Virus record (IMG/VR): IMGVR_UViG_2654587686_000018
Coordinates: 1 to 31,892 of that record
Length of the DNA stretch: 31,892 bases
Origin: a virus
Taxonomy: Duplodnaviria; Heunggongvirae; Uroviricota; Caudoviricetes
Strand: one strand, 5' to 3'
This document shows, in pieces, positions 24,966-29,272 of this stretch. The notes below the pieces were generated by a model. That model was not told the origin of the DNA, did no database searches, and worked only from the letters and a program-made list of their open reading frames with translations. Both the position numbers and the translations under genes were made by a program. Every line of letters starts with the position of its first letter. The stretch's first letter is position 1.

Positions 24966-25482
24966 TGGTGAGGCTATCCAGCTGAAAAATATGCGCGTGA
25001 CCGTCTCGCAGCAGTTTCAGGATAAAGACCAGTCCGGCCAGACAAGTGCCACAACCAAATCAGAACAGGGGGCAAAAGGGAAAGAGCTGCGTATCAGTGG
25101 CGAAATTCCGTTTAAAAGCCCGGAGATCCTGAAGCGTATTTTCGAACTGGCCAGCGCCACGGATGCCGGAGGCAACCGCCAGAAATACCGCGTGGCGCAT
25201 GAAGTGGCCAGAGCCGTGAATTTTCGTGAGGCGACATTCAGCGGAATGCTTGATGCCCCGCAGCAGGACGGGAAAATGGCCTGGCTGGTCACGTTTACGC
25301 TGGCAGAACATATCAGCGTGCAGGAAAAGCGGGAAGCCAGGGCAACAGGCAAAACGTCTGCCAAAAAACAGACGGCCGGTAATGCGGGACAATCCGGTGG
25401 CCAGAGTGCCGGGGAAGATGAAGAAAAACTGACGTGGTTTGAAAAACGGGTACTGAAACCCGTCAATGATGCTTTGGGTTAA
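24937..25482 (+). CDS. hypothetical tail-associated protein
   Basis: 181 aa, start overlaps the previous gene, SD (aaaggga) upstream. Confidence 0.45.
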   Translation: MTSIPTLALNGEAIQLKNMRVTVSQQFQDKDQSGQTSATTKSEQGAKGKELRISGEIPFKSPEILKRIFELASATDAGGNRQKYRVAHEVARAVNFREATFSGMLDAPQQDGKMAWLVTFTLAEHISVQEKREARATGKTSAKKQTAGNAGQSGGQSAGEDEEKLTWFEKRVLKPVNDALG

Positions 25483-27185
25483 TGATGAAACCAGTTAAAC
25501 GCCTGTACCTTTCAACGGATGAAGTTCACCTGGCGGATGCCAGCCTGGTGCTGGAGCTGAACAGCTGCGGCCGGGGATTTATCACTGTACAGACAGCCAC
25601 GGATTACACCGGGAAACTGGTGCGGCTGGATGTGGGGTATTCCGATCTGCTTTTGCGCTGGTTTACTGGTTATGTGGAACGCTCACAACCCGCCGAAAAC
25701 GGTTTTCAGCGTCTGTTTGTGCGCGAGCTGGTCGGCGTGTTTGAAAGGATGTGGCCATGTTCATTTCAGCACCCCACTTTGCGCAAGGTAGCCAGCTGGC
25801 TGGAGGAAAACAGCGGAATTGCTGTCAGTGTGCCGGATGCCCCTTACAGCGATAAACCGATCCCCCATTTCACCCACAACGGCACAGGCTATCAGTTGCT
25901 GAATAATCTGGGCAGGGCGTTCAGTATCCCGGATTACATCTGGTACCAGCTGCCGGATGGTTCCCTGCATGTGGGCGGCGCGGAAAAAGCGATGTTTGCC
26001 GGTCGCCCGGTCGATATCCCGGCAGAGTTTAGCCTGGGGGCGGCTGGCGGTAATTCCATGACGCTGCCGGTGATCCAGAGTCTGCGGCCGGGTGTGGAGC
26101 TGAACGGGGAGCGTGTGACCAAAGTTCATCTGACCAATGACACAATGGCTGTTACCTGGACACCCAGAAACCGTGCAACAGGTCAGCCATTACAGAAAAC
26201 ACCTGCACAGCGCCAGATTGAAAGCAATTACCCGGAACTGGCTTCCGGGCTGCATCTGCCAAAACTGGCCAGAGTGGTGGCACCCAGCGAGGCTGTGAAA
26301 AGTGGTAATTTTGCCGATCCGTTCCGGCCGCGCTATGCCGTTGATGTGCAGCTGCTTGATGCAGACGGCAACCCGGACAACCAGACACCGGTTTATTCTG
26401 CGGTGCCGCTGCCGGTACCTATGGCCGGGAATGACTCTGGCATGTTCCAGTTCCCGCCAGAAGGGACGCTGGTTGAAGTGGCGTTTACCGGAGGTCGCCC
26501 GGATAAACCGTTTATCAGGCAGACGTTGCCAGATGGTACCAGTCTGCCGGATGTTAAACCCGGCGAGCAGCTGCAACAGCAACGGGCGGAAGTGTCGCAA
26601 CGTGTTACCCAGGCTGGCGATTGGGTACGGCAGACCGATCAGACCATCAGCGAAACATCGATGGCGCGGACGGTTAAAGCCGATACGGAACAGCGTGATT
26701 TGGTCAGCCGTGAAACCACGGTTAAAGCCACCGACAAAACCACGGTTCTGGGTACCGCCACCCTGTTGGCCGGTGCCATCCAGCAGGTCAGCGCCGGGGA
26801 TTTTAGCCAGGCCGTGAAGGGCAACAGACTGGCCAGCATTGAAGGCAATGACGAAACCGATATTTCCGGGAAACAGTCCACTAAGGTGGCCGGAGCCGTG
26901 GATGTTGATGTGGGGGGAACCCTGACTGAAAAGATTGCTGCATTACGTAAATCGGTGGCGGCGGGCGGTCAGCAGATTATGGGACCAACCGTCCATATTG
27001 GCAGTGAGAGCGTCAACACGCTGACTATGATGCTGGACACTATTGATTTACTGGCCGAGCTGGCGCAGCAGTGTGCGAGCCATTCACACCCCAGTGTTGG
27101 TACGCCAACCAATGCCGGGGCATTCACACAGACGGCGGAGAAGGCCGGACAGACCCGAAGTAAGTACCAGAAAATAATCGCCTGA
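25482..27185 (+). CDS. baseplate central spike protein (gpV / gp5 / VgrG-like OB fold) with C-terminal extension
   Basis: FPPEGTLVEVAFTGGRPDKPFI matches the spike OB-fold motif (FxPxxGxxVxVxFxxGxxDxPxI). C-terminal HSHP is reminiscent of the HxH tip of P2 gpV. Confidence 0.5.
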   Translation: MMKPVKRLYLSTDEVHLADASLVLELNSCGRGFITVQTATDYTGKLVRLDVGYSDLLLRWFTGYVERSQPAENGFQRLFVRELVGVFERMWPCSFQHPTLRKVASWLEENSGIAVSVPDAPYSDKPIPHFTHNGTGYQLLNNLGRAFSIPDYIWYQLPDGSLHVGGAEKAMFAGRPVDIPAEFSLGAAGGNSMTLPVIQSLRPGVELNGERVTKVHLTNDTMAVTWTPRNRATGQPLQKTPAQRQIESNYPELASGLHLPKLARVVAPSEAVKSGNFADPFRPRYAVDVQLLDADGNPDNQTPVYSAVPLPVPMAGNDSGMFQFPPEGTLVEVAFTGGRPDKPFIRQTLPDGTSLPDVKPGEQLQQQRAEVSQRVTQAGDWVRQTDQTISETSMARTVKADTEQRDLVSRETTVKATDKTTVLGTATLLAGAIQQVSAGDFSQAVKGNRLASIEGNDETDISGKQSTKVAGAVDVDVGGTLTEKIAALRKSVAAGGQQIMGPTVHIGSESVNTLTMMLDTIDLLAELAQQCASHSHPSVGTPTNAGAFTQTAEKAGQTRSKYQKIIA

Positions 27186-27196
27186 CCATCCCATCA

Positions 27197-27227
27197 GCCC
27201 GCGCATAATGCGGGCTTTGTCGTTTGC
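27197..27227 (+). terminator. intrinsic terminator after the tail operon
   Basis: GCCCGC / GCGGGC stem at 27197-27215 followed by a T-rich tract (TTTGTCGTTTG). Confidence 0.55.
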
Positions 27228-27290
27228 TCAGTTCCTTGTTAGGATTGTTGCGATAGGATTATTGCTGACTCAAAGGATAAGAAAAGGGAT

Positions 27291-27623
27291 ATGAAAAATT
27301 TCATTATGTTAGCTGTAGGCGCAGCAGTTTCATTCAATGTGTTAGCCGCTGAAGTTTTTACTGTGCCAACGGATACGAAGGCTAGCTATACGGTCTTAGA
27401 GAAGACGCGTACCGGTGATATGGCTACGATAACAACCAAGAGAGAGGGACCATCTGGAGTGTCATATTCTAAGCGCTTGTACGACTGTACGGCCTCGACG
27501 GTCAAGTATCTTGGAAGCGGTGACACTATAGAGCAAATGAATGGCTCAGCACCAGATCCAAATATGGCACCTATAATTGACCGTTCAATTGCATACTATG
27601 TTGGTCAGAAAGCCTGCCGATAA
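27291..27623 (+). CDS. moron: small secreted/periplasmic protein of unknown function (110 aa)
   Basis: Signal-peptide-like N-terminus MKNFIMLAVGAAVSFNVLA-AEV. Two cysteines in the mature part. AT-richer than the tail genes. Bracketed by two terminators. Confidence 0.6.
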   Translation: MKNFIMLAVGAAVSFNVLAAEVFTVPTDTKASYTVLEKTRTGDMATITTKREGPSGVSYSKRLYDCTASTVKYLGSGDTIEQMNGSAPDPNMAPIIDRSIAYYVGQKACR

Positions 27624-27665
27624 CCATAGCTTCATATCAGTTGATATAAATTGAGTATTCCGCTA

Positions 27666-27688
27666 ACCCGCATAATGCGGGTTTTTTT
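27666..27688 (+). terminator. intrinsic terminator after the moron
   Basis: ACCCGC-ATAAT-GCGGGT hairpin followed by TTTTTTT. Confidence 0.7.
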
Positions 27689-28191
27689 GTGCCTGTTAAC
27701 AGGCGGCACAGAACGCACACTGTACGCATTGCAATGCTCAGATACCACACGAGACACATCAATAGGATCAAGTGCACAGCGAAGCACTGACGGCTCTACA
27801 TGCTGACAAAAGAAATACTTCACAGACAAAAACGGCACTACACCGCACCCGCCTGCGGTTTCTGGATCGATAAAATTTTTCAGTTTTCTTTTCCTACAAA
27901 CCAGACCGCCGGACAGCGCCAGTTCTGGCTGATTGCGGGAAATCTCCAACTGAAAAAATTGAAAGGAATTTCAGTGATTTTCAGTAAAAAGGATCTCTCA
28001 AGAAATTGAAGGATTGTGTAAGTTACAGATAAATAATGGAAAAAATAATTTTAGATGATTGCTTGGATGCTAATAGCGCAGGGAATTATTTATAACGAAT
28101 AGCCCGCAGTGTTAAGCTGGGGGCGGGCTAGAGTATGCATGTTGGCATTTTACCTGCTGAAAAAATGAAGAATCTAACGTCGTAAATAAAA

Positions 28192-28554
28192 TTACTCTGT
28201 TTTAGGGCAGACTATTCCTTCTTGTCTCATTTTGGCTATAAAACCAACCCCATCCCCTGTAAGGTGACTTCCATCATCTTCCAGGATACCGTCATCTCTG
28301 CCGGCACTGAGTGGAGCGCTATAAATTTCCTTATGGAACAACAGGCAAGCTCTCCCAACACCTTGCTTTTTGCATTTATCAAGGCCTAAATTCGTAATGT
28401 GATACAGTACATAAGGTGGATGTGGAAGCTCAACCTCTCTAAACACAATGCTACCAACGGCCTTGCCATCAAGACGAACTTCAATTTCAAGGCCTGAGTG
28501 ATTAACTAGTTGATACTCAACACCTCTTTTTGATTCGAAAATAGAAGTTTCCAT
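28192..28554 (-). CDS. hypothetical protein, possibly a minimal GNAT-like fold (second gene of an AT-rich cassette)
   Basis: 120-aa ORF with SD GGGAG about 9 nt upstream. Segment KKQGVGRACLL resembles the acetyl-CoA-binding motif A (Q/R-x-x-G-x-G/A) of GNAT enzymes, but the protein is short for that fold. Confidence 0.5.
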   Translation of the reverse strand: METSIFESKRGVEYQLVNHSGLEIEVRLDGKAVGSIVFREVELPHPPYVLYHITNLGLDKCKKQGVGRACLLFHKEIYSAPLSAGRDDGILEDDGSHLTGDGVGFIAKMRQEGIVCPKTE

Positions 28555-28582
28555 ATCTTTTCTCCCTATATGTAAGATAAAT

Positions 28583-28981
28583 TTATTTCTCTTCGCACTC
28601 CTGCTTAGTTTTGTTATTGATAGATATTGCTGCGCATTTGTCTAGTAATAACATGCACTTATCAATATCATCTGCTTTTCTGAGTTTTACTCGTGTTACA
28701 CCTTGGTTGTTGTCAAGTGTGGAACATATCATTTCAATTTCTATGTCATTTCGATTGAATAATCCCATAATAGTTTTAGCTACCTCTCTGCTTTTTTCTA
28801 CAATATCAAACACTAAGGATAGCTTATCTGGTGCTTTTTCAGAAAAACAAAGCACTTTGCTCAGAGGCAAATTATTATGAGAAAAGTGTCCTTTGACTTC
28901 CTCTAGAAGTTCTTGGGAGGTGTAGATGGTGATTCCTGCGAATTGTCCTAGGTGGAGAGCATTTTGTCTTGTTCTGGTCAT
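28583..28981 (-). CDS. hypothetical protein (first gene of an AT-rich two-gene cassette)
   Basis: 132-aa ORF with SD AAGGA about 7 nt upstream; 28-bp gap to the downstream gene; no family recognised. Confidence 0.5.
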   Translation of the reverse strand: MTRTRQNALHLGQFAGITIYTSQELLEEVKGHFSHNNLPLSKVLCFSEKAPDKLSLVFDIVEKSREVAKTIMGLFNRNDIEIEMICSTLDNNQGVTRVKLRKADDIDKCMLLLDKCAAISINNKTKQECEEK

Positions 28982-29117
28982 GAAGAATCCTTGAACAAAT
29001 TGTTATCAAGATTTGTTATTGATGTCGGCAGAGAAAAATGTGTCGCCACTTTGCCGCCACAGGTTAGATTGAAGAGTTTTAACTATCTGATTTGTATAGG
29101 GGATGATAACAGGCAAC

Positions 29118-29160
29118 AAAAAACCCATCAACCTTGAACCGAAATGGCGGGGTTGATGGG
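29118..29160 (-). terminator. putative terminator downstream of ybjL
   Basis: 10-bp inverted repeat CCCATCAACC / GGTTGATGGG at 29124-29160 (long loop) with AAAAAA on the plus strand at 29118-29123 (U-run on the minus transcript). Confidence 0.35.
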
Positions 29161-29272
29161 CTCCACAAAATGGGGACATCAAAGAAAAGCAGTGGCACTA
29201 ATTAAGACTGATGCCCTGCGGAAAAGTTCTGCGGTTGTGCAAAAAAATTTCATTTTCAGGGCAACTTCAGTT

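Follow-up and report, generated by a model that had tools for sequence, protein, structure and literature searches.

A probable moron cassette within the late-operon terminator of an ESSI-2-like prophage of Escherichia coli

Morons were defined for the phages HK97 and HK022 (Juhala et al. 2000; reviewed in PMC3594210), and in HK97 the gene 15 moron is located between the chaperone gene and the tape-measure gene (PMC3594210). The P2/HP1-type phages of the ESSI-2 group are rare in Escherichia coli and commoner in Salmonella, Citrobacter and Enterobacter, according to a survey (PMC6969025). The 31,892-nucleotide stretch of viral DNA analysed here (IMG/VR record IMGVR_UViG_2654587686_000018, positions 1 to 31,892, referred to throughout as the window) contains a prophage of the P2/HP1-type Cronobacter phage ESSI-2 group in E. 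coli, and a 467-bp insert after the last gene of its late operon carries a single gene, which encodes a 110-residue protein with a signal-peptide-like N-terminus. We consider it likely that this insert is a classical moron, that is, a foreign cassette placed after the last late gene near rybB and ybjL and acting by the mechanism proposed below. An earlier reading of the letters, made without database searches (the sequence-only reading), had called the gene a typical moron, and its patchy presence at the same position among relatives, its differing GC content and its own terminator agree with that description.

In about 18 of 26 species-level relatives, which were gathered via the spike protein encoded by the last late gene, a lone terminator is located directly after the spike gene, and in insert-free relatives an invariant block with the hairpin CCGCACCCGCCTGCGG lies about 175 nt past it. 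The degraded prophage of E. coli EcPF15 (L001), which belongs to this type and occupies the same ybjL site, lacks the moron gene and likewise has one terminator; this reads AGCCCGCGCATAATGCGGGCTTTTTTGTGCC and consists of the left part of the window's first hairpin and the tail of its second, exactly the hybrid that would be expected of an empty site. A single terminator in relatives lacking the insert had been proposed as a check on the sequence-only reading, and this is what the relatives have.

The upstream hairpin of the window, AGCCCGCGCATAATGCGGGCT, begins ten bases after the spike stop and is followed by TTGTCGTTTG; it directly continues the native 3' sequence of the spike gene, is identical to the hairpin of the lone EcPF15 terminator and folds as RNA at -13.8 kcal/mol, with only three U before the U-run is broken. 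The downstream hairpin, AACCCGCATAATGCGGGTT, ends within a run of seven T, starts 41 bases past the moron stop and folds at -11.7 kcal/mol with a U7 tail. It aligns column for column with the resident terminators of insert-free relatives, and the next ~170 nt past it align with a conserved block of the ESSI-2-like family. Both hairpins thus stand in native sequence on their outer sides, and therefore the resident terminator has been duplicated around the insert, in support of the earlier proposal that the gene was inserted into, or duplicated, the tail-operon terminator. As these alignments show, the cassette breaks the U-tract of the resident late-operon terminator and has a hairpin on both sides: the upstream copy has kept its stem and lost the uninterrupted U-run, and in the downstream copy both the U7 tail and the sequence past it are native.

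The exact 13-mer CGCATAATGCGGG that the sequence-only reading had noticed at 27202-27214 and 27669-27681 is present on reading the sequence, and a terminator scan and RNA folds place both copies inside terminator-like hairpins; the spacing of the longer repeat (27202-27223 vs 27669-27690) is 467 bp. By itself, an exact 13-mer repeat at short range is not exceptional, and the window has four loci at which exact 13-mers are repeated within 600 bp, against 0.57 expected from Markov-1 simulations. Hairpins of the form CCCGC-loop-GCGGG occur in the window solely at these two places and, in 478 kb of related loci, almost solely in this slot or beside the moron gene. Comparison with the relatives shows the two hairpins to be related by descent and not by chance. 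The twin terminators therefore stand as first described, but the exact shared 13-mer does not stand as the hallmark of an insertion, since its exactness is lineage-specific. The Citrobacter copies (CGCACAATGCGGG and CGCATAACGCGGG) match at 11 of 13 positions, in the divergent L054 prophage the hairpin stems alone match between the two copies, and in Salmonella relatives (L004-L009, 5896-5940) the upstream hairpin has decayed to AGGCACACACTTATTGCGGGCT, with a fold of -5.2 kcal/mol that is no better than those of shuffled sequences, while the downstream hairpin is intact. The 15-mer CCCGCATAATGCGGG of the downstream terminator is identical in L054, and forms the sole terminator in the Siccibacter prophage L021.

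The left junction, GCGGGCTT joined to TGTCGTT, is common to the window, Citrobacter, Salmonella and L054 (72% protein identity), and therefore reflects one insertion event. In the Salmonella and Citrobacter relatives the moron also has the same 105-nt spacing after the spike gene. Judging by the sequence around it, the cassette probably reached the lineage of the window via recombination in its flanks. The insert has a GC content of 43.1% and the moron gene one of 45.0%, whereas the spike gene has 56.7% and the remainder of the prophage 52%. A reading of the insert as an insertion sequence, a miniature inverted-repeat transposable element or a target-site duplication was dropped: there are no terminal inverted repeats and no transposase, and the inverted repeats at the insert ends are solely those made by the palindromic hairpins themselves.

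The stand-alone gene with a signal-like N-terminus described in the sequence-only reading corresponds to a listed open reading frame, and its product begins with MKNFIMLAVGAAVSFNVLA followed by AEV, the n/h/c layout of a Sec signal. The signal comprises K2, the h-region FIMLAVGAAVSFNVLA and small residues at the cleavage site (V-L-A before it, A after it), so that codons 1-19 (27291-27347) would be removed by predicted cleavage between VLA and AE; mean Kyte-Doolittle hydropathy is +2.17 over residues 4-19, compared with -0.45 over the remainder. The mature protein has 91 residues, including two family-invariant cysteines (C66 and C109). The ratio of non-synonymous to synonymous substitution rates (dN/dS) between orthologues is 0.09-0.22, and degraded prophages at ybjL retain the gene; by these measures of sequence the moron gene is real and under purifying selection.

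The signal region of the window protein has no cysteine, hence no lipobox. Its relatives carry AxA-type signals, lipoboxes, or transmembrane anchors with long linkers, and some are fused to DUF4124 or SH3_3 domains, arrangements that, as judged from sequence motifs, are all extracytoplasmic; a lipobox-like motif is found in ~40 of 221 family representatives. The family comprises 645 clusters at 50% identity in Alpha-, Beta- and Gammaproteobacteria, and an alignment of 74 homologues has the invariant columns D28, R51, G53, S55, G56, S60, R62, Y64, C66, Y73, G75, S99 and C109. PHROG 13843, of unknown function, is the sole library family for the window protein.

An AlphaFold2 model of the protein (predicted local distance difference test score 89.5, with low confidence in residues 1-20 alone) has a five-stranded antiparallel sheet, a short helix and a C-terminal helix. 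The top PDB matches from Foldseek are all Protein E, and the second-best match in the BFVD viral-structure search is 'Surface-adhesin protein E [Podoviridae sp.]' (probability 1.0, template-modelling score 0.60). In the model, as in the Protein E fold, a C-terminal helix joins an antiparallel sheet; one of the two cysteines lies on a strand of the sheet, the other on that helix. The window protein has no match to the Adhesin_E family (PF16747) at E<=10 (Pfam gathering score 23.7 bits), while 10 of 45 diverse family members have sub-threshold matches of 13-18 bits, all in a constant register that aligns domain residues ~40-90 with profile positions 51-109 of 109. A PDB sequence match to 6xi1 (E 1.9e-8) was rejected as spurious, because it adds up four identical matches of 8 bits each to a tandem repeat. 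The window protein is, on its model, of the Protein E/PseM fold, and is possibly a distant relative, not a demonstrated member, of Adhesin_E.

Two structural neighbours define this fold class. Protein E of Haemophilus influenzae (PF16747; PDB 3zh5, 6gus) is a surface lipoprotein of ~160 amino acids, compared with 110 in the window, and its homologues have an invariant lipobox cysteine, C16, which the window protein lacks. PseM/TdeM of Pseudomonas aeruginosa (PA0989, PDB 9m3l) has a Sec signal and a strand-to-helix disulfide, is toxic in the periplasm, is reported to be a muramidase and has an immunity partner (PMC12494544). It is 186 amino acids long and dimerises via residues 152-181, made up of the C-terminal α5 (152-169) and α6 (176-181), with an active site built from both monomers and substrate binding by Tyr36/Arg90/Glu120/Arg128 (PMC12494544). 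The window protein, in contrast, ends at the disulfide-bearing helix (91 mature residues), leaving no room for the PseM dimerisation helices, and the moron has no accompanying partner gene.

In related prophages the slot after the spike gene holds three other genes, unrelated to the moron, and, judged on these sequences, this intergenic slot is a hot spot. On the two sides of the gene for an 84-residue cytoplasmic protein, the resident hairpin and the tail beyond its T-run are repeated directly over 27-40 nt (75-78% identity), and the 149-residue and YfbU-like protein genes have the downstream native terminator alone. The moron itself has homologues of 89-93% identity in the same slot of Salmonella and Citrobacter prophages at several chromosomal sites. 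Siphophage prophages in Klebsiella, Raoultella, Salmonella and E. coli have homologues of 60-70% identity, placed between their tail chaperone (DUF6246) and tape-measure genes. The P1-like phage D6 and its plasmid relatives have one of 51% identity 5' of the portal gene, and further homologues sit on plasmids. The gene is not a conserved tail component, which would have spoken against the sequence-only reading: it is absent from most relatives, low in GC and present in unrelated phage types. The siphophage copies have their own terminator 42 nt before the tape-measure gene and end in AACCCGC-loop-GCGGGTTTTTTTATGCCC, which matches a resident ESSI-2-type terminator (L035) save for the loop; this likeness in sequence is a hint that an ESSI-2-like phage was the source of the cassette together with its terminator.

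Two further observations concern the settings of these genes. In three of the siphophage loci (L051-L053 1668-3850) an inserted block 5' of the homologue, between the tail chaperone and tape-measure genes, has genes for Arc/Mnt-like repressors, for a Bro-N (antirepressor-like) protein and for a protein of 247 amino acids, and resembles a P22 immI-like region inside a tail operon. Among degraded ESSI-2-like prophages at ybjL/rybB with large internal deletions, L054-L057 keep the 110-residue gene.

Two unrelated slot genes, the 110-residue and 84-residue ones, each have the resident terminator directly duplicated around them. That terminator hairpins act as a landing pad and recombination handle for moron cassettes in general is a speculative idea to which we give a low probability. 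If terminators do capture cassettes, hairpin-stalled template switching would be one route; a cassette would then cross between phage families together with a copy of the terminator, and this copy would supply the homology used in the following insertion, in loose analogy to the attC sites of integrons.

Upstream of the moron gene, TTGnCG and TTCC..G.TAGGAT are kept in both ESSI-2-like myophage and siphophage contexts, in which the surrounding bases differ. The arrangement TTGTCG-17-TAGGAT fits a weak sigma-70 promoter at the sequence level, and it is plausible on the same grounds that the moron has its own promoter and is expressed in the lysogen. The leader also contains a tandem duplication through which the -10-like hexamer occurs twice; the E. 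coli, Citrobacter and Salmonella versions all have it, while L054 and the siphophage copies lack it and show a gap there in the alignment.

In the mechanism that we propose, the cassette would have inserted once in an ancestral ESSI-2-like phage and then spread by recombination in the flanking homology. The weakened upstream hairpin would partly insulate the cassette from late transcription, the weak sigma-70-type promoter, which abuts this hairpin and travels with the gene, would drive expression in the lysogen, and the downstream hairpin would end both the moron transcript and late read-through. The product would be exported by Sec and cleaved after Ala19 and, because it has no lipobox, the 91-residue mature protein would be soluble in the periplasm, with a C66-C109 disulfide that pins the C-terminal helix to the five-stranded sheet, as in Protein E and PseM/TdeM. 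There it would bind a conserved envelope ligand via the invariant polar residues D28, R51, S55, S60, R62, Y64 and Y73. Periplasmic binding of such a ligand is the most likely role, because S60, R62, Y64 and C66 alternate along one strand; judged by this alternation, these residues should face the C-terminal helix. That the ligand is related to peptidoglycan is a tentative suggestion, and a role in superinfection exclusion or in protection against cell-wall-directed attack is put forward with similar reserve. Our preferred reading is an envelope factor, its ligand maybe peptidoglycan-related, that protects the lysogen.

Several points weigh against this account. The signal peptide was judged by inspection alone, and searches of Pfam, NCBIfam and PADLOC with the window protein gave no match. 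The window protein is far shorter than Protein E or PseM, and hhalign comparison with Protein E homologues, using a narrow alignment of Pasteurellaceae alone, gave probabilities of 0.2-25%, negative or restricted to the signal region. Mean column identity across Proteobacteria is 41-43%, which is unusually high, and such conservation is atypical of proteins that act in exclusion or immunity. In the ~95 nt that follow the terminator EcPF15 and the window differ, and EcPF15 is therefore another allele of the region, not the pre-insertion ancestor. In a sigma-70 scan of 27217-27290 at a threshold of 9/12 no site passes, and the upstream hairpin is weak in the window and gone in the Salmonella relatives; the moron could therefore be transcribed mainly by late-operon read-through. 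In Salmonella, where the upstream hairpin has decayed, transcription of the late operon must extend into the moron, regardless of the moron's own promoter.

Read-through is the starting point of a rival explanation in which the gene has a late accessory function, its product being made in lytic growth through the leaky upstream hairpin and acting in the periplasm at lysis or progeny release, for example in cell-wall breakdown. Such a function would suit the fact that in every phage context the gene is part of a late operon or closes one, in the same orientation, as well as the interrupted upstream U-tract of the window, the decayed Salmonella hairpin, the L048 prophage without any upstream terminator and the reported muramidase activity of the structural neighbour PseM (PMC12494544). 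We nevertheless regard it as unlikely, since most close relatives, among them isolated infectious phages of the group, lack the gene, a promoter-like element is conserved with it, and a terminator of its own 42 nt before the siphophage tape-measure gene is typical moron architecture; its retention in degraded, non-inducible remnants argues for a benefit to the host cell. A second rival is virulence-type lysogenic conversion: the product would interact with the host in the manner of H. influenzae Protein E, as a surface adhesin for vitronectin, laminin or plasminogen that confers serum resistance. The best structural matches are Protein E, weak Pfam Adhesin_E matches recur in the family, and lambda bor and lom are well-known morons that act in this way (PMC6969025; PMC3594210). 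Without a lipobox, however, the protein has no anchor that would bring it to the surface or hold it there, the Protein E family is not recovered in profile comparison, many family members are inner-membrane-anchored periplasmic domains, and the family is widely distributed in metagenomes and in bacteria that are not host-associated (Thiobacillus, marine samples, Roseomonas plasmids). An adhesin function is unsupported for the window protein, and we hold this explanation to be very improbable.

The remaining rival concerns the insertion itself: there would have been no duplication, the cassette having brought an unrelated terminator, and the shared 13-mer would result from convergent GC-rich stems and a chance match of the loops. 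This could accommodate the L054 prophage, in which the downstream hairpin is identical to that of the window and the upstream loop differs (GCCCGCCTATATGTGCGGGC), the siphophage copies, which also end in AACCCGC-loop-GCGGGTTTTTTT, and the presence of four short-range exact 13-mers in the window. It does not sit well with the downstream hairpin and tail, which align with the insert-free resident terminator and continue into the conserved block, with the restriction of CCCGC..GCGGG to this site in the window and nearly so in the 478 kb of related loci, or with the other moron of the slot, whose flanking 27-40-nt repeat includes the tail past the T-run. An origin without duplication is accordingly unlikely, and insertion into the resident terminator with duplication of its hairpin is the reading retained here. 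Coordinates of the features discussed are collected in the table.

Table. Features of the moron insert and its flanks in the window, and other genes found in the same slot of related prophages (coordinates of the latter are those of the locus named)
Feature	Coordinates	Strand	Details
Spike/baseplate gene, 567 amino acids, last of the late (tail/baseplate) operon	25482..27185	+	stop TGA 27183-27185
Upstream terminator copy, late operon	27196..27226	+	hairpin 27196-27216; U-tract cut to CUUUGUCGUUUG by the insert
Left direct-repeat copy	27202..27223	+	exact 13-mer 27202-27214; 22 nt at 86% identity to 27669-27690
Moron insert, 467 bp	27217..27683	+	bounds ambiguous within the repeat; contains promoter-like element, gene, 3' untranslated region and 5' part of the downstream hairpin
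Promoter-like element	27217..27245	+	TTGTCG 27217-27222, 17-nt spacer, TAGGAT 27240-27245; 8/12 consensus
14-nt tandem duplication TAGGATTGTTGC / TAGGATTATTGC	27240..27265	+	5' leader of the moron
Moron gene, 110 codons and stop	27291..27623	+	open reading frame list; Shine-Dalgarno AAGGGA 27284-27289
Downstream terminator	27665..27690	+	hairpin 27665-27683, seven T 27682-27688
84-amino-acid cytoplasmic protein	L002 4263-4517		same slot; E. coli EC42405, SC477
149-amino-acid protein	L025 4790-5239		same slot; Enterobacter
YfbU-like 179-amino-acid protein	L033 4721-5260		same slot; Symbiopectobacterium

The spike protein that precedes the slot shares 91% identity with the 'baseplate protein' of Escherichia phages ESSI2_ev and 78% with its counterpart in Cronobacter phage ESSI-2. 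It matches Phage_base_V, Gp5_C and Gp5_trimer_C of Pfam, all at sub-threshold or borderline scores, and an HP1_ORF34 homologue is located directly 5' of its gene. On the other side of the insert, the non-coding block 27700-28010 is kept in nearly all ESSI-2-like prophages and contains several TTTCAGT/ACTGAAA motifs, as well as the invariant GACNAAAACGGCNCTACACCGCACCCGCCTGCGG (hairpin 27843-27859) ~175 nt past the spike terminator. An Rfam match was sought for this block and none was found; the block may serve to terminate transcription of the convergent cargo genes, or it may be regulatory. A minus-strand open reading frame at 27632-27949 (105 amino acids) was set aside as it has no family support, and so was the label 'CII family protein' under a weak E. 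coli match at 27743-27800, which derives from a deletion junction in a prophage remnant and does not mark a gene of this region.

The E. coli chromosome (ybjL, ybjM, grxA) extends from ~29044 rightwards with 98% identity to thousands of genomes, and includes the gene for the small RNA RybB at 29115-29193 on the minus strand (Rfam RF00110, 105 bits). Because homology to prophage-free E. coli chromosomes begins at ~29044, the right prophage junction is placed just past the rybB 3' end, which may be the attachment site. A repeat of the right junction, sought within the window as a candidate attL, was not found there, and therefore the left end of the prophage is probably outside the window. Between the conserved non-coding block and the right junction stand two low-GC genes on the minus strand (28192-28981), encoding proteins of 120 amino acids (42% GC) and 132 amino acids (36% GC, PHROG 14142, unknown function); EcPF15, which is without the 110-residue gene, keeps the same right-end cargo genes. 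Related prophages carry an AAA_15/AAA_21 ATPase, Abi_C, DUF2971, a YafO toxin, DUF6338 or a PIN protein at this end, which looks like a variable defence or accessory hot spot.

A moron flanked by terminators on both sides is a textbook arrangement and a known phenomenon, not a new kind of element. The empty site is well documented, and the modestly interesting part is the protein family: a large, uncharacterised exported family is now tied by its predicted fold to Haemophilus Protein E and Pseudomonas PseM/TdeM, and a periplasmic target, if found, would give a role to a common prophage gene (PHROG 13843). At least four different cargo genes are found in this one slot when related prophages are compared, and three unrelated phage types share the secreted-protein gene; the element is an illustration of the acquisition and exchange of accessory genes by temperate phages.

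A comparable movement is that of the sopE cassette, which reportedly lies at the end of the late region in a P2-like Salmonella phage and also in unrelated lambdoid phages, a distribution said to imply cassette transfer between phage families. The sopE gene encodes a type III effector, and the window gene is likewise a small accessory cassette at the late-region end of a P2-like phage. T4 Spackle, T5 Llp and phi80/N15 Cor are small exported exclusion factors, periplasmic or lipoproteins, that act in the envelope of the phage-carrying cell; no relationship of the window protein to Spackle, Llp or Cor was found in sequence or fold, and they offer a plausible functional analogy. Cor is mentioned in PMC3594210. 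Like the morons of HK97 and HK022, the insert is an extra transcription unit found in some close relatives, with a differing GC content, its own terminator and a promoter-like element, and its siphophage homologues occupy the very slot of HK97 gene 15. HK97 gp15 is an inner-membrane superinfection-exclusion protein of unrelated sequence, whereas the window gene encodes a predicted soluble exported protein of another fold. The moron's own terminator is, by position, the resident terminator of the phage family and, unlike that of HK97 gene 15, the insertion point lies within the terminal terminator of the operon, which is duplicated around the insert.

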